From IMG/VR virus record IMGVR_UViG_3300006790_000002, positions 1 through 53,910 of that record: a DNA stretch of 53,910 nt. One strand, 5' to 3'. This stretch comes from a virus (lineage: Duplodnaviria; Caudoviricetes). Position numbers and translations under genes: made by a program. This document shows, piece by piece, positions 836-53,663 of the stretch. Numbering within the stretch: position 1 is the first letter of the stretch; every line of letters starts with the position of its first letter. The notes under the pieces are model-generated. The model did no database searches. It had not been told where the DNA came from and saw only the letters and a program-made list of their open reading frames with translations.

Positions 836-3118
836 ATGAATGAAATAACGTGGCTACCCTGGAACATGAGTCTATTCCGAGGTGGCTTCACTACTGTACG
901 TCCGTCCAGTATCCTTGTCAAGCAAGTCAGTCAACTTGAGAAGTTCTTCACGGATCCTCCCTGGCGTCAACGAGAGTTCCCAAAGAACAAACTGCACTGC
1001 TGGTCGCCTGCGCTGTTCCCTGCCCAGGGAGATAAGTGCAAACGCGCCAACGAGAATGTTGTCGGGATCTCTGCAATCGTCTTCGACTACGACCATCCCA
1101 AGTGGAGCGCGGAGCGAATGGCCGAACATCTCCGTTCGCTGGAGATCGCCTTCTGCGTCTACACCACTTGGTCGCACACGGACGAAGAGCCAAGATACCG
1201 CGTGGTAGTTTTCCTGTCCCGGCGAGTCAGCCCCAAAGAGTTCACGAAGGTTCGGGAGGAATGCCTCGCGCTAATCGGATACACGGAAGGAGTAGACACT
1301 GGATGCAGTGACCTCGCGAGACTCTACGCCATGCCCGTTCGAAGAACTGGTGCTTCCTTTCAGAGTTTCTTAGAGGTATCATCTACTCCCTTGTGTGTGG
1401 ATTCATTGATGACTGATACTAAAGAAACAGGCGAGGTAGAGTCTTCAGCTTCAGGCGGACTTCTACTTGCTCCCTCCACTGTTCTTGTTCTCTCCGAAGA
1501 CGGACAGGACAAAGCTCCCGTCGAAGACCTGCTGCTCCTTGGTGCTGCAAAGCACAAGTGTGCATGTCCCTTCCAAGAAGATGCCTCGTTCGGTAGCGCG
1601 TTCTTGCGCGTGATGAATGACGGACGCGCCTTCTTGATGTGTACAAGCGAGAGGCATGACCACGACAAGTCCCAGTTCTGGCTCAAAGGATCCAAGGGCA
1701 AAGGGGAAGGGGGAAAGAAGAAAACCCGCGGCGCTGCTCACTCCGTGCTCAAACGCAAGGAACTCCTCGCTGAGGTGCCCGAGAAGCTCAGGTTCTACAT
1801 TGACTCCAACATCGTGTTCAACGCTCCTCAGAACGTCTTCTACCGCCGTTCTCAGGGTGGCTGGCAGGTAGGTTCTCCTCTCCGCAAGGATGGAATCTTC
1901 AATCATCTCATCGGCAAGTTGTCCGATGGTCTCGATGGAAGTCACGTCAACGCGATGCTCGACCACATTCTTTCTCGCCAAGTCTACGGATTCACCTGCG
2001 ACTCCTCTCGTGGTCCTACCATCTATGAAGACGGCATTGGCGCCATGCTCAATCTCTACGCTCGCCCGGAGATTCGTCCGCTCGAAGGCAAGTTCGATCG
2101 CATCTCTCAGATCATCGATGTGCTCTGCGATGGAGATGAGAAGGCTGTGAACTGGCTGATGCACTGGTGTGCTTCTCTCGTTCAGCAGCCCGAGCGTCGT
2201 TCCATGGTGGCAGTTCTTTGCATGTCTCCTCAGCAAGGTGTGGGTAAGTCGATGTTCGGCAGACTCCTCTCTGCTGCTGTCGGAGAACGCAACAGCGCGA
2301 TTGTCTCCAACCGAGCCCTGAAGGATTCCTTCAACGCAAGCTACGTCACGAAGCTACTGGTCCTCGCTGACGAGGTTGCGGTGTCTGGTTCCCGGGATGC
2401 TGACTCTGTCATCCCTGCACTCAAGGCATACATCACGGATGACCGGGTTCCCTGTCGCGCTCCCTATGCTGCCCGGACGGAAGTCGAGAACCGAATGACC
2501 TGGTGGCTCACTTCCAACGACCGACGCCCTCTCATGCTGGAGAAGGATGACCGTAGGTTCACGGTCCTTGTGCCCGGGAAGTGTGATTGGGAATACCGCA
2601 AGATGCTCTCCGGTTGCTTCAATCCGAAGACAGGCAAGTACTCCAAATCTTTCGCCCTGGAAGTTAGAGCATTCGCTCACCATCTCCATGCGATGGAAGT
2701 CGACTACTACTTGATCTCTCGTCCCTTCGCTGCTCCTGCTCGTAAGCTCTTGCAGGATGCATCTCGCGGAAGCGTTGATCACTTCGTGGATCTCATTGCA
2801 GAAGTCGGAGCCGCTGCTGCTTTGGCTGACTATCCCCCTGGTCCAGACTTCATGGGAGTTCAGGTTCCCGACTCCGTCTACTCTCGGGGAGTCATCCCCT
2901 GCGAACTCATCTATGGATCCTACCGAACATGGTGTGAGCGAAACGGACGACGAGACATCCGACCAGAGTCAACTCTTCGTCTGGCGCTCATCGCCATCAC
3001 CTCGGTACATGCCAAGTGGATTATGATTGGAGGAAAGAAACTCCAAGCTTACATGGGTCTCCCTGCCCAGAAGGAAGAAGAGAAAGTCATTGAGATGCCC
3101 GGTGCTGGAATCTCGTAA
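836..3118 (+). CDS. Primase-polymerase / SF3 helicase fusion (NrS-1-like architecture)
   Basis: N-terminal VFDYD, YTTWSH and PRYRVV prim-pol motifs; Cys/His cluster in the linker; C-terminal Walker A QQGVGKS, Walker B LVLADE, motif C LTSN and DDRRF; AGGAG SD. Confidence 0.88.
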   Translation: MNEITWLPWNMSLFRGGFTTVRPSSILVKQVSQLEKFFTDPPWRQREFPKNKLHCWSPALFPAQGDKCKRANENVVGISAIVFDYDHPKWSAERMAEHLRSLEIAFCVYTTWSHTDEEPRYRVVVFLSRRVSPKEFTKVREECLALIGYTEGVDTGCSDLARLYAMPVRRTGASFQSFLEVSSTPLCVDSLMTDTKETGEVESSASGGLLLAPSTVLVLSEDGQDKAPVEDLLLLGAAKHKCACPFQEDASFGSAFLRVMNDGRAFLMCTSERHDHDKSQFWLKGSKGKGEGGKKKTRGAAHSVLKRKELLAEVPEKLRFYIDSNIVFNAPQNVFYRRSQGGWQVGSPLRKDGIFNHLIGKLSDGLDGSHVNAMLDHILSRQVYGFTCDSSRGPTIYEDGIGAMLNLYARPEIRPLEGKFDRISQIIDVLCDGDEKAVNWLMHWCASLVQQPERRSMVAVLCMSPQQGVGKSMFGRLLSAAVGERNSAIVSNRALKDSFNASYVTKLLVLADEVAVSGSRDADSVIPALKAYITDDRVPCRAPYAARTEVENRMTWWLTSNDRRPLMLEKDDRRFTVLVPGKCDWEYRKMLSGCFNPKTGKYSKSFALEVRAFAHHLHAMEVDYYLISRPFAAPARKLLQDASRGSVDHFVDLIAEVGAAAALADYPPGPDFMGVQVPDSVYSRGVIPCELIYGSYRTWCERNGRRDIRPESTLRLALIAITSVHAKWIMIGGKKLQAYMGLPAQKEEEKVIEMPGAGIS

Positions 3119-3142
3119 ACATAAAACAAAGGAGACAAGACG

Positions 3143-4786
3143 ATGGAGAACAGGCCGTTCGTCTTTTGCAGAAGTGTGCCCGAAGGTGCTGAGGATATCC
3201 CTGGCATCTGGGAGAACAAGAACGGAACGTATCGCGTTCCACTGAACGCCCATTCAGTTCTGGGTTGGGAGTCACCCATCCCGAAGGAAGTCAACGACGA
3301 GGTAGTTTCCGCTTTCCTCGCCAGTCCGCTACTTCTGGACAACTTGAATGGATTCGCGAAGGAGCACCAGCGTCGGATGCTCAGGAAGGCTTTCGCTGTT
3401 CCTGGCTCACACGGCTGGGCTCCCCCAGGTGCAGGGAAAACTCTCGTCGGTCTCGTTTACGCTTTGGGCGTAGCACCGATGGGAGTAAAGCTTATCGTTA
3501 CAAAAGCCGCTGCTCGTGGAACGTGGGCCGAACAATGCGAGAGATACACAGTTCTCGAACCCGAACTGCTAACTGGTCAGACGGCAAGAACTATCCCCAG
3601 GGATCCAACCAAGTTGTACATAACTGCCTGGGAGACAATCAAGTACTGGGCCGAAGCTATCGTAAAGGTGCGACCCGCAGTTGCTGTATGGGATGAGATT
3701 CACTGGCTGCGTCGACCTAAGCATACCAAAGCTACCGTGATGCCCGATGGCTCAGTTCGCTTTGATGGTCTGGGCAACAGCCTGGACTCTGCCCGGAAGA
3801 TTGCTGCTGTCACGGAAAGACGACTTGCTCTAACCGCCACCCCTGTGCCCGGGAGGGTGAGAGACCTATGGACACAGTTGGACATCATCGAGCCCTGGCA
3901 GTGGGGAAGCTTCCACCAGTTTGGTTTACGCTACTGCGCTGGCCAGCACAATGGTTACGGCTACGAGTACTTGGGAAAGAGTAACGTTGAGGAACTCGGA
4001 ACTCGCCTGAGAGAGATCAAGGTTCGCGTCTCCCGAGATGAAGTCAACAAGCATCTGCCCAAGAAGAGACGAGAGGTTGTTCGCTTAGAAGTATCTGAGC
4101 AAGACAAGCCTGCGGCGATGAAGCGGGAACTTGCCCGAGCAAAGAAGAATCTCAAGGGCGGAGGAGAAGAGGCCCGAGAGAGTTACTTCGAGGCTCTCCT
4201 CATGGAAGCTGCATCTCGCAAACACTCTTACGTTCAGGAGCGAGTTCTCACTGCCCTGAAGTGCAGGCAGAAAGTCACGGTGTTCTCAGGACGACGCATC
4301 GACTGCGAACGCCTCGCTACCAAACTCAAGAAGATCACTGACACCATTCCCGGCTGTGGGATGTGGTGGGCTCACGGAGGAACAGATCCTTCTGAGCGAG
4401 ACAAGATCCGCCACACTTATATGGATCACCCTGGGCCATGTCTGCTCGTCGGAACCGGAGATGCCTGGGGAGAAAGCGTGGACCTCCAAGACACAGACCT
4501 GGCGCTCATCGCTATGCTGCCCTGGACTCCAGACAAAGTCATCCAGTGGGAAGGACGTTTCTCCCGACTGGGCCAGAAGCGTGCGGTGCTCGTGTCCTAT
4601 GTGATTGCCCGGACGACTGCGGATGAAGACGTTGCGGACACTCTCCTGGACAAGCTGCCGCATGTCGGAGAGATCGCAGAAGATGGAGCAGCGGAAGAAA
4701 TCGAGAACGCGCTGGGGGGAGTTGATAACTCCGAAGGCGCAGCAGAACGTTTGCTCCAACGTGTGGCTCAGTTGACATCCCCTTGA
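3143..4786 (+). CDS. SF2 (SNF2-like) DExH helicase
   Basis: PGAGKT (motif I), WDEIH (II), ALTATP (III), QWEGRFSRLGQ (VI). Confidence 0.9.
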   Translation: MENRPFVFCRSVPEGAEDIPGIWENKNGTYRVPLNAHSVLGWESPIPKEVNDEVVSAFLASPLLLDNLNGFAKEHQRRMLRKAFAVPGSHGWAPPGAGKTLVGLVYALGVAPMGVKLIVTKAAARGTWAEQCERYTVLEPELLTGQTARTIPRDPTKLYITAWETIKYWAEAIVKVRPAVAVWDEIHWLRRPKHTKATVMPDGSVRFDGLGNSLDSARKIAAVTERRLALTATPVPGRVRDLWTQLDIIEPWQWGSFHQFGLRYCAGQHNGYGYEYLGKSNVEELGTRLREIKVRVSRDEVNKHLPKKRREVVRLEVSEQDKPAAMKRELARAKKNLKGGGEEARESYFEALLMEAASRKHSYVQERVLTALKCRQKVTVFSGRRIDCERLATKLKKITDTIPGCGMWWAHGGTDPSERDKIRHTYMDHPGPCLLVGTGDAWGESVDLQDTDLALIAMLPWTPDKVIQWEGRFSRLGQKRAVLVSYVIARTTADEDVADTLLDKLPHVGEIAEDGAAEEIENALGGVDNSEGAAERLLQRVAQLTSP

Positions 4787-4796
4787 CATTTGATCC

Positions 4797-4824
4797 TTGC
4801 AGAGCACAACCACTTGGCTATAAT
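4797..4824 (+). promoter_or_regulatory. Internal sigma70-like promoter upstream of the recombination module
   Basis: TTGCAG, 16-bp spacer, perfect TATAAT at 4819-4824, then GAGGAG SD and ATG at 4840. Confidence 0.5.
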
Positions 4825-4839
4825 AGAGGAGAACAGGCA

Positions 4840-5655
4840 ATGAAACTCTTAGACGCTGGCCCTTCTGAAAGAGGGTGGCACCGAATCCAAACAGTCATCC
4901 GATGTCCCAGGCTCTTCGCCTGGAGAGAGATCGGAGGCAAACGATTCAAGGTGTCGGCTCCATTAGTGAACGGATCTTTGATCCACGTTGCTCTTGCTCA
5001 TCACTACCAACGCCTCAAAGAAAAACAGACCGGAGGGAATCCAGATGATTGGCTCTTGCCAGAAGATGCAATCGTCGCCCTTGCTGAGAAGAACGCAGAA
5101 GAGTCTCCCTTGTGGATGTCTGCAATCCCTCAGATTCAAGATGCCTACTTCGCCTATCGGCACAACTGGCATTTCGAAGAATGGAAGGTTCTCGATGTCG
5201 AGCATCAACTTAGAGCCCGGTTGGGAGAGAAGAAGCATCTCTACACCCAGCGAGCAGATCTCATCATCGAAGACGCGAACGGAAGAGTTTGGATCGTTGA
5301 TCACAAGTCGGCTTACCGACTCAACTCTAAAACTCTTCGGCAGCACATTCTCGATGGACAGTTCATCGGGTATCAACTTTTCGGGAAGGCTCGGTACGGT
5401 TCTAAGTTCGCGGGAGTTCTCGTGAACCGAATCAAACTCTCACCTCCCTTCGACTTTGACCGTCGTCCTCTCGAACCCGCGCCTCGCGCGTTGAAGCATT
5501 TCGTTCAAGTCATCGAAGAGGGAGAACGCAAGATCTCTCTCTTTGAAGGGAAGCCCATCGAGGAATGGCCCATGGCTCTCAACAACCAAACCTGCTTCGG
5601 CAAGTACGGACAGTGTGACGCATACGACCTGTGCCGATTCGGAGATGAAGGATGA
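4840..5655 (+). CDS. PD-(D/E)XK exonuclease, Cas4/AddB-like with probable 4Fe-4S cluster
   Basis: CPR near the N-terminus; GSLIH, VE, RADLI, IVDHKS and QFIGY motifs; C-terminal C-x6-C-x5-C. Start moved to ATG 4840 on SD evidence. Confidence 0.85.
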   Translation: MKLLDAGPSERGWHRIQTVIRCPRLFAWREIGGKRFKVSAPLVNGSLIHVALAHHYQRLKEKQTGGNPDDWLLPEDAIVALAEKNAEESPLWMSAIPQIQDAYFAYRHNWHFEEWKVLDVEHQLRARLGEKKHLYTQRADLIIEDANGRVWIVDHKSAYRLNSKTLRQHILDGQFIGYQLFGKARYGSKFAGVLVNRIKLSPPFDFDRRPLEPAPRALKHFVQVIEEGERKISLFEGKPIEEWPMALNNQTCFGKYGQCDAYDLCRFGDEG

Positions 5656-5861
5656 TTCTTCTCAAAGTCACCGACGAAGAGAAGAAGGTTGTTCTTGAAG
5701 CCCTTCACTTTCTCGCAAGAGAACTCGACGACATGATCAAGACCTACAGCGATGCAGAGACTGAAAGAGAAATCGAGAAACTGAAACTCTTGGATCAGAT
5801 CATAGATGTGATTCAACTAACTGATCGACCTGAGTTGACCGATCAAAAACCTGTGTGTTAG
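5652..5861 (+). CDS. Small hypothetical helical protein, 69 aa
   Basis: ATGA overlap with the upstream gene; in operon. Confidence 0.7.
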   Translation: MILLKVTDEEKKVVLEALHFLARELDDMIKTYSDAETEREIEKLKLLDQIIDVIQLTDRPELTDQKPVC

Positions 5862-5898
5862 CTTTCGTGAACCAACAAGTGTGTGTTTGGAGAAATCA

Positions 5899-6855
5899 AT
5901 GTCTACTAAGAATGGATCTAATGGGTCCAATGGCCGAAGCAGTTCGCCTGCTGGGGGCGTATTCATCTGCCTCTACGGCCCAAGTAAAGCCGGAAAAACA
6001 ATCGCCTCCGCAGCAGCAGGAGCAACGGGAGTCTTCATTGGAGATCCCGCTGGTCTTCTCTCAGCCCAGAGATTCCTTGGGCTTGAGAAGCTGAACATCG
6101 CTCCGGCGAAGATTGTTCCAGAAGCGACGGCGGCGATTGAAGCCGTTGTTTCCAAGGGAGCGAAAGTTCCTTCTATCGTTATCGATGACTTCTCTTTGAT
6201 GGTTGAGTCTACAATCAACGAGTACGAATCCTCCAAGGGTCGAGGCGGAATGTGGTCCGCTCTTACGCGAGATGTCCTCGCGTGTCGAGACGCCGCTCGC
6301 GCGGCTACTGCCCAGGGGATGGTTGTAATCTTCAACTGTCATGAACAGCCTCCACGGACCAGCAGCGGTAAGTTCGTTCGCGGTGGTCCTTCACTGCCTG
6401 GCCAGCTTCCAGAAAAGTTTAGTGGCATGGTCGACGTGATTGGCCGAGCAATGTTCGAGCCTACCGCTGCCCCGTGGAAATACCAACTCTGCTTCAAACC
6501 CCAGGCCGACTATGTCTCTGGAGATCGACTTTCCGTGTTCCCGGGAATGGCTCCGATGAATGTCGCTGAGGGACTTCGAGCAGCGGGATACTTGATTCCC
6601 TACCCCAAGGGACTTGAGTGGATCGACAAAGTTGCCCAGGGAGTTTGCGATGAGATCCTCAAAGCAGGAATCGAGAACTGGTCAGACGTTCTCCAGAAAG
6701 CTGTCGAGAAACTCAAGGGCAAGCGAGAGATCGCTCACATTCGCTGGGCTCTCCAGGATGGTCTGCATCGTGCAACCATCAAACATTACGAAGCCGTCGA
6801 GGCACTTGATCTGTTCTCGCGACCGATCGAAGACGAAGAGGCTTTATTCATTTAG
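5899..6855 (+). CDS. AAA_24 / Sak4-like ATPase (ssDNA-annealing recombinase candidate)
   Basis: Walker A YGPSKAGKT, SIVIDDFS, VIFNCHE; lies between the exonuclease and SSB, the usual Sak4 context; start at ATG 5899 after GGAG. Confidence 0.75.
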   Translation: MSTKNGSNGSNGRSSSPAGGVFICLYGPSKAGKTIASAAAGATGVFIGDPAGLLSAQRFLGLEKLNIAPAKIVPEATAAIEAVVSKGAKVPSIVIDDFSLMVESTINEYESSKGRGGMWSALTRDVLACRDAARAATAQGMVVIFNCHEQPPRTSSGKFVRGGPSLPGQLPEKFSGMVDVIGRAMFEPTAAPWKYQLCFKPQADYVSGDRLSVFPGMAPMNVAEGLRAAGYLIPYPKGLEWIDKVAQGVCDEILKAGIENWSDVLQKAVEKLKGKREIAHIRWALQDGLHRATIKHYEAVEALDLFSRPIEDEEALFI

Positions 6856-6974
6856 TGGATCGGGGGTAGCCAGGTTTTTTCCTTTGTACCAGTGGCGCTA
6901 CCTCCGATCCCATCTCTCCCACTCGCGTGTGTGTTGTGGGTTTTCACCCCCAGACTTTGACATAGGAGTCATAA

Positions 6975-7511
6975 ATGTCTGTAACTATCGAACTTGATTT
7001 CACCGGTCACTCCCCCGCGGGTGCTGGTATTGGTTACCTCGAAACTGGCCTGCACTCGGCTCAGATCTTGGAGTTTCGTCACTACGAAGATTCCAACCGA
7101 TTGCTGGTCTACATGATCACGGAGGGCGTCCGTCACAAGGACAGCTTCTCCCTGAGCCCCAAAGCTATGCCTTTCCTCATGGGCTTCCTGGTTTCGGCTG
7201 GAGTTCCTGAGAGCAAGCTGAAAGGAAAGACTAAGTTTCCCTTCGACAAGCTTGCCGGAAAGTCCGTGTACTTCAACTACACCGCTCCCACCATGGGTGC
7301 GAACGGTCGTCCTGTTGAGGGAAGTTACGCTGACTACCGCTACATCAACGAGAACTACTTCAACCAGATGAAGAAGGCCCAATCCGCTCCGGCTCCTGCT
7401 GACTTCAAAGTCGAGGCCGAGCCAGCCCCTGCCGCACAGCCTGTGTCAAATGGCGCGGCTCCAGTTGCTAAGACCTCATCTTCCGATGAGTTCGAGTTCC
7501 TGATGGATTGA
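6975..7511 (+). CDS. Putative ssDNA-binding protein
   Basis: Follows the Sak4-like gene; beta-rich core, Ala/Pro linker and acidic-aromatic C-terminal tail SSSDEFEFLMD. Confidence 0.7.
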   Translation: MSVTIELDFTGHSPAGAGIGYLETGLHSAQILEFRHYEDSNRLLVYMITEGVRHKDSFSLSPKAMPFLMGFLVSAGVPESKLKGKTKFPFDKLAGKSVYFNYTAPTMGANGRPVEGSYADYRYINENYFNQMKKAQSAPAPADFKVEAEPAPAAQPVSNGAAPVAKTSSSDEFEFLMD

Positions 7512-7736
7512 CCAGTGCCCTTCGGGGCGTGAGCGGCGGAGCAGGGAGGCATGTCCGCGGTCTAACAGATGTCTCAACTTTTTTTATCTTTCTTGGAAAT
7601 TAATCTCCTCCTTGACCGTGTACATAGTGAGGGAGGACTACCAGCGATCTTCTTCCCTCAAGGGGAGGAGTGGTTACCTCCGGCCCCTTCCCCCTTTCGT
7701 AGTGGTGCGGGGGAGGGGGCACCTTCCCCAGAACTT

Positions 7737-10247
7737 ATGCTTTACCCAATCTGCGAAAACTGCGCCCTCAACACGGGCGATGCCACTCCGGTACTATCTG
7801 AAACGCACGATGATGATCGCGTGATCATTCTGGGAGATTCTCCCGGTATGCACGAGGTAGTCGAAGGCCGTCCCTTTGTTGGCCCGGCTGGGCTTGAACT
7901 CCAGTCTGCGCTGAACGCGCTGAATGTGCCCAGGGATAGATGCTACATCGCCAATGCTGTGCGCTGTCGTCCTCCGAAGAATGACTTGGAGACAGTAAAT
8001 ATAAAGGTTTCTCGAATCAACCGAAGGAGAGAGAAACTCGCTAAAGAAAACGGAACGGAGGCTGTCCGGCTGCTCCGTCCTCTTGATGCCTGCAAGACGT
8101 TGCTACTTGAAGAGCTTCGACTTTCCGGAATCAAGAAGGTCATCTGTTTAGGGAAAAATGCCGCCAGAGCAATCCGTGGTGGAGATGTCTCCATCATGAA
8201 CATTCGAGGCGGGTGCGAACTTGTCGAGGCACCCTGGGATCCTGAAGTAACTCTGGAGGTGGCGTATACCATGCATCCTTCCTGGGTTATCCGGCAGGCT
8301 GCTTACCGCGAAGTCTTTCGCCATGACCTGCGAAAAGCATTTCGCTTCTTCTCGGGCAACCTGGACTGGCCCGAACCAAAGATCACTCGCACCAACGAGG
8401 TGGAGGTTCTTGAGCGGTTCCTTGCCCGGTGGAGGGCGAACAAGACTCCCGTCGCCTATGACTTGGAGACTGACGGGATTGATCCAATGACCGCTAACGT
8501 GCGCTGCGTAGGTTTGGGCAATGAAGAAGAAGCGTTAGTTGTGGAAATCTTGAGCATCGATGGGACTTCTTTAGCGACTCCGGATCAAGTTGTTCTTCTC
8601 CAAAACTCACTAAAGAAGTTCTTCCTCGATCCGCAGGTTCCTTTACTCGGACACAACGCAGGACAGTACGACCGGCTCTGTGTGGAGTCATGGCTGGGCA
8701 TCACCCCAAACCTGACTTGCGATACCATTCTCCTGCACTTGCTCGCAGACAACGAACTCCCTCACAACCTGGGCTTTGTCGGTTCTTTCTACACGGACAA
8801 TCCCGAAGCCTGGAAAGCAGACCACACGGCAGTTGAGGCAAAGACCGACGAGGAGCTTCATATCTACTGTGGCAAGGATGTTTGCGTCACGGCTCGCATC
8901 GCGCAGCCTCTTGCCCGGGATGTGAGGAAGCGTCGCCAACAGCACCTTCTTCCACGAGAGCACATGCTTCAATCTCTGGGCGCTACGATGGAGAGAGTCG
9001 GCATGGGAGTCGACTTGGCCAAGGCTACTGAACACTTGATCAGACTGGACACGGAGGCAAAGATCCATCTCCGCAGATGCCAGGATCTCGTCGGTGAGGG
9101 ATTCAATCCGCAAAGCACTCGTCAGATGGCGAACCTTCTCTTCACGGAGTGGGGCTTGGCTCCCCATCACTACTCGGAGAAGACGGGAGATCCCTCTACG
9201 GATGACGAAACTCTCCGCACAATGATCGTTCATTACGGCTTGGACGAGGAGCGAGTTTCAGTGTTGCGCTCAGTGAGGACTTATCGCAAAGTCACCAAAC
9301 TCCTGGGCACCTACATCCGACCCCTGATCCAGAAACAGATCACGAGAATCCATCCCAGCTACAACCGTCTCCCAGCTACGGGCAGATACTCTTCGAGCAA
9401 TCCGAACGCTCAGAATATCCCGTACAGTCTGCGGGACATCTTTGTTGCCCGGGAGGGGTGTGTTCTGGTTGGCGCTGACATGGACCAGCTTGAGCTTCGC
9501 TTGATCGCTGAAGAGGCCAAGGCAAAGCATTCACTCCGAGTTATTCGAGAAGGACTCGACCCACACAACGAGACGATGGAGATCGTATATGGCAAAGGGA
9601 TATGGAAACTCGAAGGAGCCCCCAGTGATCGTAAGGAGAAAGGCAAGGGCACCTTCAAAGCCACCCGTGACATCACGAAAAACACACGCTACGCTTGGCA
9701 GTACGCTGCTTCAACTAAGCGAATCCACGAACAAATCGTCTCGGTCGAAGACGACGAAGGGAACCTCCTCTACTCGCACCTCACGGTCGAAGACGTTCGG
9801 CAAGTAGTCGAAGGTCTCAAGCGAGCAGATCCAGAGATCCCTCGCTGGTGGAGGATGATCGAAACTCGCTACCGGAAAGAAGGCTTCATTGGAGATTCTC
9901 TCTGGGATCGTCGTCGCTACTTCAGGAATGAAGACAAGATCAACGAGCTTGTAAACCACCCCATCCAGTCTGGAGGAGTGGTGATCGTCAATGAGGCGAT
10001 GCTTGAGTTGATCTACGGAGTCCAGGATTGGTTTGCTACAGAAGCGATCGATCCTCCCAACCAAACACTCCCGGTAGAGTGGCTGATCAATCACGGCCAC
10101 GATGCTCTCTATTTAGAGGTGCCCGAGAGTGAAGCAGAGTTTGCTGCGGAAGTTCTGGAAAAAGCCATGAACAGACGCAGGAAAGTGAACCCGCTCCTCG
10201 ATTACACCGCTGCTGCGGACATCGGTAATCGGTGGAGTGAGGTGTAA
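7737..10247 (+). CDS. Family A DNA polymerase with N-terminal family-4 uracil-DNA glycosylase-like domain and 3'-5' exonuclease
   Basis: UDG: CENC, GDSPG..E..EGRPFVG.AG, NAVRCRPP, CLG, HPS. Exonuclease: YDLET, GHNAGQYD, YCGKD. Polymerase: TGRYSS, ADMDQLELR, RDITKNTRYAWQY, HDALY. Start uncertain (7569 vs 7737). Confidence 0.93.
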   Translation: MLYPICENCALNTGDATPVLSETHDDDRVIILGDSPGMHEVVEGRPFVGPAGLELQSALNALNVPRDRCYIANAVRCRPPKNDLETVNIKVSRINRRREKLAKENGTEAVRLLRPLDACKTLLLEELRLSGIKKVICLGKNAARAIRGGDVSIMNIRGGCELVEAPWDPEVTLEVAYTMHPSWVIRQAAYREVFRHDLRKAFRFFSGNLDWPEPKITRTNEVEVLERFLARWRANKTPVAYDLETDGIDPMTANVRCVGLGNEEEALVVEILSIDGTSLATPDQVVLLQNSLKKFFLDPQVPLLGHNAGQYDRLCVESWLGITPNLTCDTILLHLLADNELPHNLGFVGSFYTDNPEAWKADHTAVEAKTDEELHIYCGKDVCVTARIAQPLARDVRKRRQQHLLPREHMLQSLGATMERVGMGVDLAKATEHLIRLDTEAKIHLRRCQDLVGEGFNPQSTRQMANLLFTEWGLAPHHYSEKTGDPSTDDETLRTMIVHYGLDEERVSVLRSVRTYRKVTKLLGTYIRPLIQKQITRIHPSYNRLPATGRYSSSNPNAQNIPYSLRDIFVAREGCVLVGADMDQLELRLIAEEAKAKHSLRVIREGLDPHNETMEIVYGKGIWKLEGAPSDRKEKGKGTFKATRDITKNTRYAWQYAASTKRIHEQIVSVEDDEGNLLYSHLTVEDVRQVVEGLKRADPEIPRWWRMIETRYRKEGFIGDSLWDRRRYFRNEDKINELVNHPIQSGGVVIVNEAMLELIYGVQDWFATEAIDPPNQTLPVEWLINHGHDALYLEVPESEAEFAAEVLEKAMNRRRKVNPLLDYTAAADIGNRWSEV

Positions 10248-45007: not shown

Positions 45008-45009
45008 AA

Positions 45010-45656: not shown

Positions 45657-46148
45657 TTATTCTCCCTGGGCTTTCTTACGAGGTGAGGTGATTGCATCTC
45701 TAACGTCCAGGACTTCAGGCTGCATAGCTTCCTCCCCTCCTGCGAGTTGAATCAACTGCTCTACATAGTTGACCTGAACGTTCTGCTGGTTCTTTGGACC
45801 GTTTGCCACGATGCAAGTGTACATAAGTTCGGCCCACTTTCGTAGTTCTGCCGACTGTCCCGCCTTGATTTCTCCGCGAGCTACTGATAGACATACTGTC
45901 GTCGCGAAATCGACCACTCCGTTCGTGCTGTGAAGATGCGGAGCGGCTTTCGCCAGAAACGTAGCAGGCAACGACTCGTCATTCACCAAGGCTTGGATCC
46001 GTAACTCCTCCAGAGCCTCGGGACTTAGCAGGCTTTGGTTGTCATCAGGAACAGATGTAATCTTCGATAATGCAGTTTCTTCCTGGCTTTTCGTTGATTC
46101 CTTTGCGCCCTCTTCAAGCCCAGGAGTAGTTGTATCGTCATTCGTCAT
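45657..46148 (-). CDS. Possible terminase small subunit
   Basis: 163 aa, helical with C-terminal QQNVQVNY strand; upstream of terL; assignment mostly by position. Confidence 0.4.
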   Translation of the reverse strand: MTNDDTTTPGLEEGAKESTKSQEETALSKITSVPDDNQSLLSPEALEELRIQALVNDESLPATFLAKAAPHLHSTNGVVDFATTVCLSVARGEIKAGQSAELRKWAELMYTCIVANGPKNQQNVQVNYVEQLIQLAGGEEAMQPEVLDVRDAITSPRKKAQGE

Positions 46149-47041
46149 AGCTTCAATCTCCCTTGGTACTCGAACCCACGGCCCTCATCCCGATTTCTAA
46201 TCCGCTCCCCGCGATCCGGGTACTTCTCTATTCCTATCACATTCCACCATACATTCCCCAGCGAGGAATCACGATGCATCTGCTTCTTCTCTGGGAGCGA
46301 CTTGTGATACCGCTCTTTCTCCTCCACGCTCCTAAATACTGGAGAATACTCGGGAAGTCTGCGTGGAACCGGATGCGGCCTCTTCCCCAGCTTCAACAGA
46401 GTCTGCACGTAGGTCGTATCGTACAACTCCCTCCGGGCATGACGCAGCTTCGTCCCCTCATCCAAAAGTGCCCTGGCGTGCGCTCGTGTTCTCACGATTG
46501 GCGTCAAGTTTGTAGAAAGTGCCCAGAGCGCGAAGGACGAAGTGTGCATCAACACCTTTATGAACTCGCTCCTCGCACCCTCCCATCCGGGCACTAACTC
46601 TTCCAACACCTCGTCCCCGAGCCCTAACAGCCACCACTGGAACGCACTCGTGTGAATCTTCGGCGCTCGCGTAGCGATCCCCTGGAAAAACCTTCGAGGT
46701 ACGTTTCCGGCTCCCTGGCCCAGGGTGAAGGTCGCAACCTCATACGGAGTAGGAGGTTCCTCCAACCCGAACGCACGAAACGCATGATCGCTCCACTGAC
46801 TGTGCGCCACACCCATCGTCTTACTAAACACGTTCTCACGAAAGCTCGGCAGGTAGCACATCCGCTTCCTGATCTGGAAGATCATCTTGTTTGCCCGGAG
46901 AGGGGCAGTAGTCTGCGTCTCCATAATCGGAGGACACAATCCCAGGGCATACAGCACATGCTGGAACTTTGCTCTCTCAGGAAGATGCGTGTTCCCAAAC
47001 TGAGGCAACTTGAGCAGTTCTAACCACGAGTCCGTCCGCAT
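46145..47041 (-). CDS. Hypothetical basic protein, first gene of the late block
   Basis: 298-aa ORF; ATGA overlap with the next gene. Confidence 0.7.
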   Translation of the reverse strand: MRTDSWLELLKLPQFGNTHLPERAKFQHVLYALGLCPPIMETQTTAPLRANKMIFQIRKRMCYLPSFRENVFSKTMGVAHSQWSDHAFRAFGLEEPPTPYEVATFTLGQGAGNVPRRFFQGIATRAPKIHTSAFQWWLLGLGDEVLEELVPGWEGARSEFIKVLMHTSSFALWALSTNLTPIVRTRAHARALLDEGTKLRHARRELYDTTYVQTLLKLGKRPHPVPRRLPEYSPVFRSVEEKERYHKSLPEKKQMHRDSSLGNVWWNVIGIEKYPDRGERIRNRDEGRGFEYQGRLKL

Positions 47042-48516: not shown

Positions 48517-48984
48517 ATGAACATCTTCATCCTTTCCGCTCACCCGGTTCTCGCTGCCGAGGACTTGTGCGACAAGCACATCGTCAAGATGTGTCTTGAG
48601 ACCGCACAGCTACTTAGCACTGCCGCTCGGGCTCACGGTGCCGACTGCGACGAACTGTACAAGTCGACGCACGTCAACCACCCGTGTTCTGTCTGGGCTC
48701 GCACTTCCCGCGCAAACTACCGCTGGTTACTTCTGCACGGTGACGCTATCGGACACGAGTATGGAAGGCGCTACGGTAGGATTCACAAATCTGCCTGGGT
48801 CATCCAACGCGCTCGGGACTTCCTGACACTTCTGCCCGACACGCCGATGACGCCTTTCGCTTTGGCTATGCCTGACCAGTACAAGTCAAGTTGCCCTGTG
48901 TCCTCTTATCGCCGCTACTACCGCTGCGAGAAGTCAGACATTGCTCAGTGGAAGCATTCCCGAACTCCCTCATGGTGGGTATGA
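48517..48984 (+). CDS. Pyrimidine-dimer DNA glycosylase / endonuclease V-like (DenV-like) protein
   Basis: MNIF.L....AA...CDKH.VKM.LE.AQLL, H.NHPC..W, EY..RYG..H. Confidence 0.82.
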   Translation: MNIFILSAHPVLAAEDLCDKHIVKMCLETAQLLSTAARAHGADCDELYKSTHVNHPCSVWARTSRANYRWLLLHGDAIGHEYGRRYGRIHKSAWVIQRARDFLTLLPDTPMTPFALAMPDQYKSSCPVSSYRRYYRCEKSDIAQWKHSRTPSWWV

Positions 48985-49073
48985 CACCGACGAAACTTCC
49001 CGGGTTCTTCAGCCCGGGGAGTTTAGCCGGTAGCATGTCGCTGCTGGAAACCACAAACAAAGGAAACAGAGAA

Positions 49074-50249
49074 ATGGATTTCTCGAAAATGAATGTGTTG
49101 TTCGAAACGCTCGATATGGCGTTGAACTCTAAACCCTCGCAGCCAGTTCTTATCTGGGGCATGGACGGATGCGGCAAGTCGCGCGGAGTCGAAAGCTACA
49201 TCCGCCAGAACATGTCAAATGCCGACGGGTCAGATGTGAAGTACTGGTTCCTCAACGGAAACTCCATGGACACCACGGACATTCCGGGTCTCTTTGCCCG
49301 GGGAGAAGATGGCGAATGGGGACGTGTTCCAGTTCTGCGAGCCATCAAAGAGGCTGTGGAAGAACAGGCAAAGGGGAACCAATACGTGTTCATCTTTGAA
49401 GAGTTCACGACGATGAACAAAGCCGTCATGGCTCCGTTCCTCTCACTTGTCTCCGAGAAAGTTGCGGGAGACTTGCGGCTCGACGAGAACCTGACTCACA
49501 TCATCGCGCTCGCTAACCCTCCCGAGATCGCGGTCAATCCGACGCATCTTGCTCCTCCGGTATCTACCCGGTTCTTGCACTTGCAGTGGAAGATGGACTT
49601 TGCTTACTGGTCGGAAAACATGATGGAAGGCAACTGGTTTCCAGGAACTCAAGAGGCAGCAGCAGATGTCATCTCCTACCTGGTCGGCAAGTGCAATCCT
49701 GACTCGCCAAGCTTTGACGAAACTTCCGGTTTCGCACAAGCTCCATCTCGTGAGTTCATGAACAAGACTCGGGGCAATCCTCGGACTTGGACGAATCTGA
49801 TCAAGGCGGATTCTACTGCCCGGGAGTGTGGCGCTTCCTTGCGTGCTCGCGAGATTATGTTCCGCGGCATGGTCGGTGAGGGCCTTGGGCGAGAATACGC
49901 TTCCTGGCTCCGGATGCAAGCGGACGGTCTGGACGTTATCGCTGCTTTGAAGGATCCCGCTTCTGTCGAGATACCGACTCGGACTGACCGGCAGTTTGCG
50001 TTCTTCAATGCTGTGGCTGCTCGTGTCTCGATGACGATGGACCCGGACGACTTCTACAACGCCTGGGAACTTCTCTCCAAGACGAACGACCGTGACTTGG
50101 CAGTTCTGCCCGCTCGCACATTGGGCAAGTTGCTCCAGAAGAAAGACGGCACAAAGCTCATGAAGAAGCGTGGACTTCATCCGACCGTGATGGAGTACGG
50201 CGAAATGCTCATGGGACTGAAAGCCATTCTTGCCGACATGAAGCAGTAG
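49074..50249 (+). CDS. MoxR-type AAA+ ATPase
   Basis: PVLIWG..GCGKS, FIFEEF (Walker B variant), ALANP, STRF, NPRTW; start 49074 after AACAAAGGA. Confidence 0.85.
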   Translation: MDFSKMNVLFETLDMALNSKPSQPVLIWGMDGCGKSRGVESYIRQNMSNADGSDVKYWFLNGNSMDTTDIPGLFARGEDGEWGRVPVLRAIKEAVEEQAKGNQYVFIFEEFTTMNKAVMAPFLSLVSEKVAGDLRLDENLTHIIALANPPEIAVNPTHLAPPVSTRFLHLQWKMDFAYWSENMMEGNWFPGTQEAAADVISYLVGKCNPDSPSFDETSGFAQAPSREFMNKTRGNPRTWTNLIKADSTARECGASLRAREIMFRGMVGEGLGREYASWLRMQADGLDVIAALKDPASVEIPTRTDRQFAFFNAVAARVSMTMDPDDFYNAWELLSKTNDRDLAVLPARTLGKLLQKKDGTKLMKKRGLHPTVMEYGEMLMGLKAILADMKQ

Positions 50250-50261: not shown

Positions 50262-51305
50262 ATGACTACCAAGTTTTACCCGCTCGTGTGGACGAAAGTC
50301 CGATGTCTCGGTGAGCACCATGCGGTGTTCTTGATGGAGACTGCTTCTGGCAAAAGGAGCCTGGCACTTCCTAAGCATAGGAGAGATTCCGAGAACTCCC
50401 TGGAGCGTGTGCAAGCGCTCCAGGTTCTTGCTCCGGAGTTTCGCTGTCGATGCTACGAGGTACTTTGCGCCTGGCGTGTCTACTGTAGTTGGACAGATGG
50501 GCAGATTCAGGCAATGCTCAAGTCTACCCTGCGAGATAGGCCAGAAGCGATTCCGCTCTTGAAAGCTATGCGGGAAGTATCCAGCAAGAAGACACGAGCA
50601 AACCTGCAAGTCAGCCCTTCAAACGTTCTTGCTCTCATCCCGAAAGAGTTGCGGATGTATGCGGAAGAAGCCCGTCAGAAGCGAGCCTATCGAGTTGACA
50701 AGAACAAGGACGAGTGGAGACGGACTATCTACCACACGGGCAACTGGGAGAAAGCTCTCCAGAAGTTGCCCAAGGGAGAGCGGACGTTCATACATTCTCG
50801 GAACTACCGAGACTCAAGTGTGCGGTCCCGGAAGCTCGCTGAATCGTTCAAGTCGCGATATGGGTTTGGCTTCCGAGAGAACCAAGGGGACTTTGTCGAT
50901 AAATGGTTCCGCAAGAGGTTAGCGCCTGCTGGCCTTGCGGGACAGGAGCATCGAACTGGAGCACTGAGAAGTAAGCCGTTCAACTTCATTCAAGATGTTC
51001 CCCATCGGCCCGACGGTACGAAATACGTATCTGCCCAGTACTGGATGCGGCACTGGTGGGATCACCAGTGGTTCCGGGAACTGTGCGAGTTCGGGTTTGC
51101 TCCTTCTTCCATCCCGCCTCAAGAAATGTGGATCCACAGGCGAGAAGGCGAGAAGGTGTTTCCGTCCCACCCGGCAACTGTCATCGGTGTGACTTTCAAA
51201 GGAACTACCTACTCTTGTTTCACAAAGTACTGGATTCGCATTGAGCGCGTCGCAGGCAACTGGCACTTTCGAGTATCTACCCACCCCATCACCACGCGGT
51301 ACTAA
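50262..51305 (+). CDS. Hypothetical Arg/Trp-rich protein, 347 aa
   Basis: Long ORF between the MoxR and VWA genes. Confidence 0.7.
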   Translation: MTTKFYPLVWTKVRCLGEHHAVFLMETASGKRSLALPKHRRDSENSLERVQALQVLAPEFRCRCYEVLCAWRVYCSWTDGQIQAMLKSTLRDRPEAIPLLKAMREVSSKKTRANLQVSPSNVLALIPKELRMYAEEARQKRAYRVDKNKDEWRRTIYHTGNWEKALQKLPKGERTFIHSRNYRDSSVRSRKLAESFKSRYGFGFRENQGDFVDKWFRKRLAPAGLAGQEHRTGALRSKPFNFIQDVPHRPDGTKYVSAQYWMRHWWDHQWFRELCEFGFAPSSIPPQEMWIHRREGEKVFPSHPATVIGVTFKGTTYSCFTKYWIRIERVAGNWHFRVSTHPITTRY

Positions 51306-51318
51306 CAAAGGAAAAACA

Positions 51319-52584
51319 ATGGAACTTACAGAACAGCAAATGTCGCAGGCCACCAAGGAGCTGCAACTTATCCGCCTCGGAGCTTTCGAGGTTTATCCCT
51401 CGATGGCTTCCGCCATCTTTGCCACTCAGCTTGTTGTCTCTCCGGAACTACGCGACAAGTCAGGAGCTTCCTGGTGTGTCGATGAGTTCTTCCGGGTCTA
51501 CGTTGACCCACGGGTTCTTATCGGCCCGGAGAAAGAGACAACTCTCCAGTCCATCGCTTCTCTCTTGCACGAGGTGCAGCATCCTCTGAGAAATCACTTT
51601 GAGCGGTTTCGTCTGATGCGCGAGAAGGATGGAACTCCTGTCAACCTCCGGAACGCAAATCTCGCTGCGGACATGGCGCTGAACAGTCAGGAGTTCCTGC
51701 GGAAGAATCTTCCCAAGAACTGCATCTTCCCAACTTCCTTCCCTTCCAAGAGAGGATACCCTCTCCCCTGGGGACAAACGACGGAGTACTACTATGAGAA
51801 CGCCCGCTTTCCAGAACAAGAGGAAGACGGAGAAAACTCGACATTCGGAGAAAGCGCCGATGCTGTCGGGGGAGAGAGATCCTGGGAACTTGGGCCTCCT
51901 TCAGAAGAGAATCCAGGATGCACGCAAGAAGACATCGAAGAGATCCAAGAAGCTTGCGCCCGGGAAGTTCGAGAGCAAGAGAAGAACGACCCGGGTTCTT
52001 TGCCCGGGGATCTCGTTGAGTGGGCAGGCGAGATTCTCGAACCTCCCAAAGTCGACTGGCGGGAAGTTTTCGCTCAACTCCTCAAGGAGTCGCAAGAGCG
52101 AACTATCGGAGCAAGCGCGTTTACCTTTGCCCGTCCGAACAAAAGAACTTCCGTACTCCATGACGACATTGTTCTTCCTGCGGTCTACGAGCCAACGCTG
52201 AATCCTGCCCTGGTGGTAGATTCATCTGGCTCGATGTCGGACGAGGACTTGAACCACTGCTTCAGCGAGATTGGGGAAGTTCTCCAGATGTCAGCTTCCG
52301 AGACATTCGTTGTGACAGGTGACACGAAAGTCGACTTTGCTGGTTACGTCCATGACGTTGCAGGCGTGGAGATCAAGTCGCGCGGTGGCACGAACATGAC
52401 TCCTCTCTTCCAGCGAGCAGTCCAGGAAGTTCCCGACTGTATCGTGGTGATGACTGACGGATGGTTCGACTTTCCTCGCGAGGCAGAACTTGACGGTATC
52501 CCGCTCATTGTGTGTCTTATCGGGAACTCGACTCGTCACTATTGTCCCAACTGGGTTGATGTCGTGGAGGTGAAAGATGACTGA
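51319..52584 (+). CDS. HExxH metallopeptidase plus VWA domain protein (DUF2201-like MoxR partner)
   Basis: LLHEVQH, N.AAD..N, P.VDWR, RPNKR; MIDAS DSSGSMS, GGT, TDG. Confidence 0.85.
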   Translation: MELTEQQMSQATKELQLIRLGAFEVYPSMASAIFATQLVVSPELRDKSGASWCVDEFFRVYVDPRVLIGPEKETTLQSIASLLHEVQHPLRNHFERFRLMREKDGTPVNLRNANLAADMALNSQEFLRKNLPKNCIFPTSFPSKRGYPLPWGQTTEYYYENARFPEQEEDGENSTFGESADAVGGERSWELGPPSEENPGCTQEDIEEIQEACAREVREQEKNDPGSLPGDLVEWAGEILEPPKVDWREVFAQLLKESQERTIGASAFTFARPNKRTSVLHDDIVLPAVYEPTLNPALVVDSSGSMSDEDLNHCFSEIGEVLQMSASETFVVTGDTKVDFAGYVHDVAGVEIKSRGGTNMTPLFQRAVQEVPDCIVVMTDGWFDFPREAELDGIPLIVCLIGNSTRHYCPNWVDVVEVKDD

Positions 52585-52690
52585 TTGGGAAGAATGGCTG
52601 GCAGAACAATCTTGCTACGACCCATGTTTTCAGGAGTTGTCTATCCTTGCGATACTTCTCCTTCCGACCTTCTCACCTGGAGAAGCTTGA
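52577..52690 (+). CDS. Possible tiny protein, 37 aa (not in the ORF track)
   Basis: GGAGGTG SD; overlaps the VWA stop; MTDWEEWLAEQSCYDPCFQELSILAILLLPTFSPGEA. Confidence 0.35.
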   Translation: MTDWEEWLAEQSCYDPCFQELSILAILLLPTFSPGEA

Positions 52691-52766
52691 GTCTCCCTCT
52701 AACTTCCGGGTTCTTGCCCGGAGGTTAGCTGGTGCAATCAAGCGCCCGCTCAACAAAGGAAATATC

Positions 52767-53591
52767 ATGAGCATCGAAAAGTCAGTAAAGTACAACGGTA
52801 TCACAGTCTTCTGGAGCCTCACGGATGGAACGTCCATCTCGAAACTCCGCGACGGGTTCGATCTTATCGGTCGGCAAGATTTGCTTCCGGATACTCAGAA
52901 CGTAGCTCAAGCTCTGCGCCGTGCGATTCAGCAGAACTTCCCGACCCGCAACAAGATCATTCGTCCCTTGAAGGGAGGTATCGGTTTCGCGGTTGTCCAC
53001 GAGGAAGAAACTATCGACGAGAACAACAACCGCAAACTCGTTCACGAGGAAGAACTCCGCGTTGTCTACTCGGGATGCATTCTCTCCAACCCGTGTGATC
53101 ATCCTAAGATGGATGCCATCGAGGAAGCGTTTCGTGTCGAGCGGCAACAAGTGACTGCTGCCAAGTTGGGAGGAATCCTGGTCAAGGCTTGCAACGGACT
53201 TTCGGGAATCCCGCTCCGTCCGCGTGGTGGGTTCTACTGGATTCCGAACTCGAAAGCTGACGAGTGGGAATCAATCGTCAATGTCATCGAGCAGGCAAAT
53301 CCGAGTAACCGTGTGTGGCGCATGAAGACTACAACTGACAACGAGACAGTTGACGCTGTCTGCGACTCGCTGGTGATTGAAGTCGAGAAGCAGTTGGAGA
53401 ACTTGTCCGAATCTATCCTGACGGAAGACTTGGGTAAGCGTGCTCTCAAGACGAAAGAGACGAACGCGCTGGAACTGAAAGCTCTCGTTTCGGAGTACGA
53501 ACAGATTCTTGGGAAGACGCTCACAAAGCTCCAGGAGAAAGCGGAAGAAGTTCACGCATCGGCCTCGGTCGCGTTACTTCAATGTCTGTGA
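52767..53591 (+). CDS. DUF6744/DUF3150-like early protein
   Basis: GITVFWSL, LRPRGGFYWIP, C-terminal coiled coil with YEQILG; AACAAAGGA SD. Confidence 0.6.
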   Translation: MSIEKSVKYNGITVFWSLTDGTSISKLRDGFDLIGRQDLLPDTQNVAQALRRAIQQNFPTRNKIIRPLKGGIGFAVVHEEETIDENNNRKLVHEEELRVVYSGCILSNPCDHPKMDAIEEAFRVERQQVTAAKLGGILVKACNGLSGIPLRPRGGFYWIPNSKADEWESIVNVIEQANPSNRVWRMKTTTDNETVDAVCDSLVIEVEKQLENLSESILTEDLGKRALKTKETNALELKALVSEYEQILGKTLTKLQEKAEEVHASASVALLQCL

Positions 53592-53663
53592 TGCCCGGGA
53601 CAGAGTTTGAGTTTATGTCAGTCATTCTTGTTCTGATGTTATTCGTTTCCTGCTTCTAAGCAC

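Follow-up and report, generated by a model that had tools for sequence, protein, structure and literature searches.

A selected, strand-polarised TGCCC-type word in a family of uncultured tailed phages, tentatively read as strand-specific nick sites

The genome of an uncultured tailed phage (Duplodnaviria; Caudoviricetes; IMG/VR record IMGVR_UViG_3300006790_000002) carries the word GCCCGGG in 29 copies on the + strand and three on the - strand. The entire virus record, 53,910 bases with a completeness rating of 100%, was analysed and is referred to below as the window. The word was shown to be a real, selected, one-strand DNA signal, and a broader class to which it points, TGCCC followed by three purines (TGCCCRRR), was found in related phages. 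Tentatively, and ahead of the other explanations weighed below, the forward TGCCCRRR copies may be recognition sites of a site- and strand-specific nicking system specified by the phage.

Copies were located by exact counting. A first-pass annotation, made from the letters alone, had listed 29 forward and three reverse positions; each was exact and none had been overlooked. The copies are given below with their strand and the gene or open reading frame (ORF) in which they lie.

2572-2578, + strand: GCCCGGG, as TGCCCGGGA; in the primase-helicase gene (+)
3847-3853, + strand: GCCCGGG, as TGCCCGGGA; in the SNF2 helicase gene (+)
8913-8919, + strand: GCCCGGG in the gene of the family A DNA polymerase (PolA); relatives keep the position, with swaps GGG/AAG/GAG/AGG
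9447-9453, + strand: GCCCGGG in the PolA gene; relatives keep the position (GGG/GAG/GGA)
10949-10955, + strand: GCCCGGG, as AGCCCGGGG; in ORF 10503-11012 (+)
13426-13432, + strand: GCCCGGG, antisense to the endolysin-like gene 13100-13735; several relatives keep the position as TGCCCAGGG
17077-17083, + strand: GCCCGGG, antisense to ORF 16953-18218
19530-19536, + strand: GCCCGGG, antisense to the 2033-aa gene, which holds eight copies
20398-20404, + strand: GCCCGGG, antisense to the 2033-aa gene
20574-20580, + strand: GCCCGGG, antisense to the 2033-aa gene
21972-21978, + strand: GCCCGGG, antisense to the 2033-aa gene
22368-22374, + strand: GCCCGGG, antisense to the 2033-aa gene
23176-23182, + strand: GCCCGGG, antisense to the 2033-aa gene
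24261-24267, + strand: GCCCGGG, antisense to the 2033-aa gene
25000-25006, + strand: GCCCGGG, antisense to the 2033-aa gene
28296-28302, + strand: GCCCGGG, antisense to ORF 28081-28842
31444-31450, + strand: GCCCGGG, antisense to ORF 31014-33173
33215-33221, + strand: GCCCGGG, antisense to ORF 33190-33540
39074-39080, + strand: GCCCGGG, antisense to the portal gene 38605-40458
42348-42354, + strand: GCCCGGG, antisense to the gene of the large terminase subunit (TerL); position kept in 5 relatives
43142-43148, + strand: GCCCGGG, antisense to a 792-aa ORF specific to this genome
44888-44894, + strand: GCCCGGG, antisense to the same 792-aa ORF
45182-45188, + strand: GCCCGGG, antisense to a 214-aa ORF specific to this genome
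49012-49018, + strand: GCCCGGG in the AAA ATPase gene (+); extra CCGGGTTCTT upstream
49296-49302, + strand: GCCCGGG in the AAA ATPase gene; extra CCGGGTCTCT upstream
49818-49824, + strand: GCCCGGG in the AAA ATPase gene
51958-51964, + strand: GCCCGGG in the DUF2201/VWA gene
52002-52008, + strand: GCCCGGG in the DUF2201/VWA gene; extra CCGGGTTCTT upstream
53593-53599, + strand: GCCCGGG, the sole intergenic copy
11195-11201, - strand: reverse-orientation copy, chance level
26137-26143, - strand: reverse-orientation copy, chance level
38684-38690, - strand: reverse-orientation copy, chance level

Of the 29 copies, 19 read TGCCCGGGR; T precedes the word (position -1) in 21, and a purine follows it (position +7) in 27. 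GCCCGGGR occurs 27:1 (+:-), and one-mismatch neighbour words are without comparable skew. Three copies (48995-49021, 49279-49305 and 51985-52009, all in the AAA/VWA block) have (C)CCGGGTYCTYT 3-14 nt upstream, giving a near-tandem CCGGG...GCCCGGG.

Excess and asymmetry were assessed against several null models. Dinucleotide shuffles gave 6.0 +/- 2.5 copies with the strands summed, and none of 100 reached 32. When synonymous codons were shuffled within genes (2000 times), 5.06 +/- 1.92 forward copies were expected, with a maximum of 14, and no shuffle reached 29; the reverse word was expected 3.51 +/- 1.78 times and observed three times. This codon-preserving control had been proposed in the first-pass annotation, and it confirmed the forward excess. 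Permutation of whole codons within genes gave expectations of 4.26 forward and 3.32 reverse copies. The forward word is about sixfold enriched; the reverse word is at chance, neither enriched nor avoided.

The polarity had also been claimed to be independent of gene direction, and this was borne out by counts of 10:1 in + genes, 18:2 in - genes and 1:0 in intergenic DNA. Forward copies occupy all three frames of both gene orientations, and the peptides that they encode differ (PG, AR and SRA among them). A codon or peptide origin was ruled out by the occurrence in all frames, the varied peptides and the codon-preserving nulls, and a dispersed-repeat origin was rejected because the copies are not fragments of a longer repeat. 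Since the excess survives the codon-preserving nulls and is present in all frames and in both gene orientations, it is a directional signal at the DNA level and not a codon effect. The core proposal of the first-pass annotation was thereby supported, and the readers that it had suggested fared unevenly, as described below. By strand skew, GCCCGGG ranks as the top 7-mer of the genome. Under a maximum-statistic null taken over all 7- and 8-mers, it was matched in none of 60 shuffles and was the sole significant word among 12 genomes tested.

Relatives were gathered from IMG/VR by searches with TerL (130 confirmed stretches, 80 kept) and PolA (62 confirmed, at 61 distinct loci). Twenty-five were taken whole or to the contig limit and oriented as the window: G001-G020, G023-G026 and contig C243 of the metagenome-assembled genome (MAG) G022. 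The nearest carry GCCCGGG on the same strand (G001 17:2 and C243 48:18, for example); others are without it and bear GCCCGAG, GCCCAAG or TGCCCAGG on that strand. The skew was present separately in + and - genes in each case checked (TGCCC in G004, 44:7 and 74:21). In a directed test of TGCCCRRR with 150 synonymous shuffles per genome, the class was forward-enriched in 16 of 19 genomes (z 6-20), so that the skew looked for in related phages was found. Observed counts were 63:26 in the window (11.3:9.1 expected), 29:4 in G004 and 33:4 in G008. The enriched relatives cover 47-60% G+C with a constant TGCCC stem, and the reverse strand was mostly near expectation. Under the all-k-mer null the TGCCC-type words of the relatives are individually non-significant, and their support comes from the directed test. 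Rival polarised words seen in single genomes (TTCCATC 16:1 in G002, TGATAGT 15:0 in G005 and GATGTCT 11:0 in G009) were matched in 7, 22 and 40 of 60 shuffles, respectively, and were rejected.

A sister clade of nine genomes (G014-G016, G019-G020 and G023-G026; TerL about 54% identical) showed no forward enrichment of TGCCCRRR, with counts of 0:9, 3:4, 5:13, 4:5, 4:5, 4:7, 4:2, 3:8 and 5:5. Its reverse counts were slightly above the null in G014 (z 3.4) and G016 (z 3.2). A pooled scan of this clade, controlled for gene orientation, found no DNA-strand-polarised word. Eight genes of the motif-bearing clades are missing from the motif-less one: 355-774, 6975-7511, 10503-11012, 45657-46148, 46145-47041, 48891-50249, 51241-52584 and 52647-53591. 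The genes for SNF2, exonuclease, Sak4, PolA, TerL and portal are retained there. Confinement of the word to clades with particular phage genes fits a phage-encoded function that was gained or lost with those genes.

Further features were observed among the relatives. The motif-less G015 has a DNA methyltransferase gene (phrog_111, E 1e-46; L190:955-1503, - strand of the locus) in its replication arm. In C243 (57 kb; L217 at about 10940-13700), some 1.1 kb of additional sequence interrupts the match to TerL after residue 170, leaving its parts at 50940-51449 and 52557-53702 of the contig; the interruption may be an intron, an intein or a homing-endonuclease insertion. Blocks of changing 9-mer orientation in C243 were dismissed as noise, the contig being collinear with the window.

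The 3' half of the word varies with the restriction sites that a genome lacks. CCCGGG is absent from G002, G004, G005, G012, G017 and G018, for which synonymous shuffles predict 7-12 copies, and none of these genomes uses the GGG form. CCWGG occurs 0 times in G010 against 79 expected and twice in G018 against 93 expected; both are essentially without the AGG form, and TGCCCAGG contains CCAGG. The lineage of the window has an excess of CCCGGG (37 against 15 expected). Most genomes polarise several purine variants together. On the simplest reading, the reader would accept TGCCC plus purines, and each lineage would spell the word around the restriction sites that it must avoid. As spelling tracks restriction-site avoidance, a co-evolving reader is unnecessary to explain the variation. 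The differences in palindrome avoidance point to different restriction pressures, and hence probably to different hosts or strains within one phage family.

The surroundings of the word were analysed in 605 forward sites, pooled over the 16 genomes with enrichment. On the 5' side there is almost no feature, and the 7 nt on the 3' side are C-poor (10-20% against a background of 26%) and G-rich. Tails free of C follow 36% of forward sites (n = 606) but 22% of reverse sites (n = 229), and the figure for controls is 13.5-14% on either strand (about 6,400 each; 13.5% of 6366 in one set). This effect was found in both gene orientations (49% in + genes, 26% in - genes). In 69% of sites the tail opens with G or A. 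When 13 genomes were divided into 3-kb bins, the polarity of the word reversed nowhere. Copies in the window are spaced 1,855 nt apart on average; a regular spacing was not significant (coefficient of variation 0.80 against 0.95 +/- 0.16 for random placement, 15% of random sets being equally even).

Conservation of position was measured in eight relatives. Forward TGCCCRRR of the window stayed in place in 96 of 212 aligned site-relative pairs and control 8-mers in 830 of 3,925 (odds ratio 3.1, p 3e-14, the pairs being non-independent through shared ancestry). Reverse TGCCCRRR was kept in 20 of 76 pairs, as often as the controls. Forward copies are thus retained about twice as often as controls and reverse copies are not, which means that selection holds the forward sites only. 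In the 2033-aa gene, all eight copies lie in DNA that could not be aligned at the nucleotide level even with the closest relative; word copies thus also arise within non-homologous DNA.

The closest documented precedent is the strand-specific nick site of tf/LUZ24-type phages, which was not among the readers considered in the first-pass annotation. Pseudomonas phage tf has 14 nicks at TACT/RTGMC, all in the top strand, of which 12 are in the sense arm and two antisense (PMC3517423 and the tf record). Its word occurs 14:0, each copy is nicked, and positions are partly conserved in the tf group (PMC3517423). Our own de novo scan of tf recovered the nick word as the top strand-skewed k-mer (7-mer 13:0, consensus 14:0). 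Rembedalsseter, also a Pseudomonas phage, carries WACTRTGAC in 13 copies on one strand, each at a strand-specific drop in nanopore coverage, and 60 of its relatives are enriched in the word (PMC11780129). According to the same paper, the purpose of phage nicks has been unknown for about 50 years. The part of the tf paper that deals with nicking genes gives two for T5, sciA and sciB, and names no tf nicking enzyme (PMC3517423).

The window resembles these genomes in layout as well as in its word. Its replication gene set (355-12581) is on the + strand; the late genes (13100-47041), among them those for an endolysin-like protein, the 2033-aa protein, the major head protein, portal and TerL, are on the - strand; + strand genes at 47.4-53.6 kb include those for an AAA ATPase, a DUF2201/VWA protein and a DUF6744 protein. 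On a circular map the arms diverge at about 47.1-47.4 kb and converge at about 12.6-13.1 kb. Like tf, the phage has convergent early/replication and late/structural arms, a putative small terminase subunit (TerS) with TerL at the start of the late arm and a short terminal repeat (186 nt in tf), and the word is on the coding strand of the replication arm. As in tf, Rembedalsseter and the LUZ24-like phages, this is an over-represented, one-strand word of 8-9 nt which is independent of gene direction and ranks as the top-skewed k-mer. As in the tf/LUZ24 group, the word recurs among relatives in slightly varied form, at positions that are conserved in part. By this analogy, TGCCCRRR (here mainly TGCCCGGGR) would be recognised by a phage-specified nicking system, and packaged DNA would bear, in the + strand that encodes the replication arm, localised single-strand interruptions. 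Nicks are proven in tf and Rembedalsseter; here the sequence signature is what is shown, and cleavage at the word, an enzyme responsible for it and a purpose for the nicks are inferred.

Several observations weigh against nicking or set the window apart from tf. The word is unrelated to WACTRTGAC, and tblastn of the window proteins against tf gave no match at E <= 0.01. With 29 strict and 63 broad copies, it is more frequent than the 13-14 copies of tf and Rembedalsseter (2-4 times the number in tf), and it is more degenerate, especially in its 3' half. The C-poor 7-nt tail has no counterpart at the 14 tf sites. The primase of tf is annotated as DnaB-like, unlike that of the window. No nuclease was recognised among the unannotated genes with Pfam, PHROG or NCBIfam, and a profile search with three unannotated proteins against PDB sequences gave none at E <= 0.1. 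The first gene of the late operon (46145-47041) encodes a 298-aa protein modelled as all-helical (pLDDT 84, pTM 0.85), for which no PDB fold match was found (best E 1.5). Reverse TGCCCRRR is in excess in the window (26 against 9.1, z 6.5) and in G009 (30 against 10.9, z 6.8), as also in G018 (z 4.5), G003 (z 4.3) and, modestly, G002 (z 3.2). The excess in the window and G009 counts against nicking because a nickase would be expected to disfavour reverse copies; the strict word is at chance on that strand (3 against 3.5), and the broad class is in excess there yet unconserved.

Phage T5 offers a further point of this kind. Its nicks are on one strand only, with the consensus R/GCGCRGG (as quoted in PMC3517423), which differs from the GCCCRGG of the present clade at one of seven positions. 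GCGCRGG is neither enriched nor polarised in the T5 genome (8:9); kinship of the two words was therefore rejected and the resemblance is probably coincidence. As T5 is nicked yet unpolarised, nicking need not leave the signature and the signature need not mean nicks. Two further results favour nicking: the primase words of T7 and NrS-1 are without this signature, and a host signal fails the only available test, that in MAG G022 (see below). On precedent and anatomy, nick sites are ranked first of the readings considered, another polar reader second, priming sites third and a host Chi-like signal last; what remains is left to something unforeseen.

The further features of the window that bear on these readings are as follows.

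1-123, no strand: terminal repeat, left copy, an exact 123-nt direct repeat; true ends and assembly overlap are indistinguishable
53788-53910, no strand: terminal repeat, right copy, an exact match to the left 123 nt
836-3118, + strand: fusion of archaeo-eukaryotic primase (AEP), zinc module and superfamily 3 (SF3; D5-type) helicase, 760 aa; not found at full length in the motif-less sister clade; candidate reader if the word marks priming sites
3143-4786, + strand: SNF2 helicase
4783-5655, + strand: exonuclease (phrog_1218, E 2e-24)
5881-6855, + strand: Sak4-like annealing protein (phrog_124, E 2e-10)
7569-10247, + strand: PolA with an N-terminal domain like uracil-DNA glycosylase
13100-13735, - strand: endolysin-like gene
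38605-40458, - strand: portal gene

In PolA, a domain of the uracil-DNA-glycosylase superfamily (residues 80-244, E 1.5e-22) is followed by a 3'-5' exonuclease and then the polymerase. Beside its gene, 6975-7511 encodes a 178-aa protein kept in every motif-bearing clade, which ends in an acidic tail (SS.DDFDFLLD). This tail resembles the C-termini of phage single-strand-binding proteins such as T7 gp2.5; a sequence profile search of the protein against PDB gave no significant match. Gene 45657-46148 is directly upstream of TerL in relatives and possibly encodes the small terminase. Between it and TerL lie the 792-aa and 214-aa ORFs (42629-45654, - strand), which hold three motif copies. Apart from one weak partial match in G003, these ORFs had no homologue among the 18 relatives compared, and Pfam, PHROG and NCBIfam matched neither of them; the pair looks like a lineage-specific insertion within the packaging module. 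Among cultured phages, no GenBank nucleotide match was found and the top protein identities were 26% (PolA) and 24% (TerL). A tRNA search of the genome found none. Among public sequencing runs, searched as contigs, 24 matched: one, labelled marine metagenome, contained every sampled word of the genome and may be its source, two others contained shares of 0.28 and 0.22, and the other 21 small shares; no habitat is deduced from these matches.

Possible, though on balance unlikely, is that the copies serve, by their orientation, to bind or load a phage protein that moves one way along DNA. This protein could conceivably be small and clade-specific, a product of the AAA/VWA/DUF6744 block, or a factor for ejecting or condensing the genome; at a similarly low level of belief, the word might be a strand-specific modification target kept frequent by selection. 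Such readers would find room among the eight genes which, besides the primase, follow the clade distribution of the motif and most of which are without assignable function. The enrichment of the broad class on both strands in the window and G009 is what a duplex-binding protein with an orientation preference might give. Full-text searches of the literature found no precedent, however, and the sequences point to no particular reader protein. SNF2, exonuclease, Sak4, PolA, TerL and portal are poor candidates because they are kept in the motif-less clade. On this ground SNF2, which the first-pass annotation had suggested, is unlikely, and a role in packaging, also suggested there, is weakly argued against by conservation of the terminase in that clade. 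The SMC ATPase of the same annotation had only sub-threshold P-loop matches behind it.

Less likely again, but possible, is lagging-strand priming, as raised in the first-pass annotation, with the word as a template recognition signal of the phage AEP primase-helicase. On the - strand the word becomes 5'-CYYGGGCA-3', directly preceded on its 5' side by a run poor in G. Under this doubtful scheme the primase would, as in pRN1 and NrS-1, bind the word and start at the next template base, and the primer would be C-poor, begin with a purine and measure about 7 nt. Lagging-strand synthesis would then always use the same strand as template, as happens in rolling-circle or one-ended replication. AEP-class enzymes do recognise specific template words and start on the first base 5' of the word (PMC8718748). 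Such words are known for the AEP primase-polymerases of pRN1 (GTG) and NrS-1 (TTTGGTTA / GTGR), to which the AEP primase/SF3 helicase of the phage is related in structure. This 760-aa protein has the AEP motifs (DxD at 84-86, H114 and D154), zinc ligands CxC..C..HxH at 242-276 and the SF3 domain, all invariant in 15 orthologues, and the best structural matches of its model are the C-terminal region of NrS-1 (E 3e-18), poxvirus D5/E5 and the SaPI5 primase-helicase. The C-poor, purine-started 7-nt tail fits the geometry of a word with an adjacent start on the - strand; the mean spacing is 1.85 kb and the polarity never flips.

Distribution of the primase is also consistent with priming. Of 17 motif-bearing genomes, all but G007 encode the primase-helicase, and G007 is a 66%-complete fragment without that region. 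The nine motif-less genomes gave no full-length match, and complete G015 is without a recognisable primase; in G019 a match of 239 aa, at 31% identity, runs in the opposite orientation. This co-occurrence is, however, a single phylogenetic contrast, and eight other genes are distributed alike. The primase of G003 is only 34% identical yet retains every invariant residue, which makes it uninformative as a natural swap experiment.

Other results are at odds with priming. Known primase words form no polarised, enriched array in their own genomes, unlike the word here: the T7 primase words of the literature count 161:159 in T7, and the NrS-1 8-mer TTTGGTTA is neither enriched nor polarised in NrS-1 (0:1). 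Spacing was no more regular than random, as given above. Composition at fourfold-degenerate sites is governed mainly by which strand is coding; DNA strand has a small effect (GC -0.02, AT -0.03), giving no sign of replication asymmetry. Full-text searches of the literature found no genome-wide oriented array of priming words, although supplements might list more polarised words. Considered unlikely is a cis-acting priming code: the AEP primase-helicase would read about 30-60 oriented CYYGGGCA words of the - strand and begin a short C-poor primer on the G-poor run beside each, which would fix lagging-strand starts to one strand of a genome replicating in one direction. If true, no replicon described earlier would have such primase recognition sites oriented along its whole genome; here selection would maintain them, and each lineage would spell them afresh to evade host restriction enzymes. 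Reading of the word by the primase would be a new principle of replication organisation.

Mimicry of a host Chi or FtsK-orienting polar sequence (KOPS), as raised in the first-pass annotation, is the weakest explanation and is unsupported by the candidate host and by the recombination genes of the phage. It would be improbable that the word is read by a host RecBCD/AddAB-type enzyme entering the free end of replicating or packaging concatemers, and equally so that a Chi-like word protects the phage DNA or promotes recombination-dependent growth, as in Chi-rich lambdoids. A G/C-rich make-up of 8 nt is typical of Chi sequences, and the word shares it; enrichment of one orientation with the other neutral is expected of a one-sided signal. 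Precedents of similar size are phage LLS (20:3) and Pseudomonas phage MD8 (32:0), whose polarised, over-represented octamer is the known Chi of the host (PMC12315714), to be compared with 29:3 here. The Chi-rich lambdoids described in that source have no recombination module and have their sites clustered near one end (PMC12315714). The present phage, in contrast, owns a recombination module (the exonuclease and Sak4-like protein listed above), and its sites are spread over all 3-kb bins of the genome with gaps consistent with random placement and no clustering at an end. The TGCCC stem is constant over phages of 47-60% G+C, and no polarised word exists in the sister clade, whose recombination genes are the same. 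Where homology between relatives breaks off, the distance to the word is no shorter than expected by chance (median 761 bp against 613 +/- 92), and the phages have no excess of canonical Chi- or KOPS-type words (GGGNAGGG 6:7 in the window).

The replichore skew proposed as a check in a candidate host was sought in MAG G022, the only candidate and one linked by binning only, in which 353 kb of contigs were oriented by the sign of GC skew. The most skewed words (G-rich versus C-rich strand) were GGGCAGGG (30:4) and CTGGTGG (75:29), which we take to be the E. coli-type KOPS and Chi. Their recovery indicates that the orientation method works, yet the phage word is unpolarised there (TGCCCRRR 74:89, GCCCGGG 68:53). 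Orientation of fragmented MAG contigs by GC-skew sign is in itself usable for Chi and KOPS word searches where no closed genome exists. A prophage search with a TerL profile in 185,579 species genomes gave two loci, neither of them integrated. One, in a 'Myxococcales chromosome', lies on a contig of 16.7 kb that is flanked by 100-N spacers and strung together with other small contigs, so it is binned and not integrated. The other is the whole 57-kb phage contig C243 within the 'Proteobacteria' MAG G022 and is not a prophage.

Strand-exclusive words are known from few cultured phages: the nick sites of the tf/LUZ24-like and phiKMV-like groups and Chi in some lambdoids. The same signature is now found in a large family of uncultured phages unrelated to those groups, with a different word at higher density. 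The C-poor tail, positional selection in one orientation and a 3' half re-spelled by restriction avoidance go unmentioned for the known cases in those parts of the cited papers that were drawn on here. Two selective pressures act on the same bases, and the family offers a natural mutagenesis series for recognition rules. If nicks are confirmed, nicked genomes would be far commoner than one would judge from the few known in Pseudomonas and E. coli phages, and metagenomes could be searched for them by the polarity of motifs.

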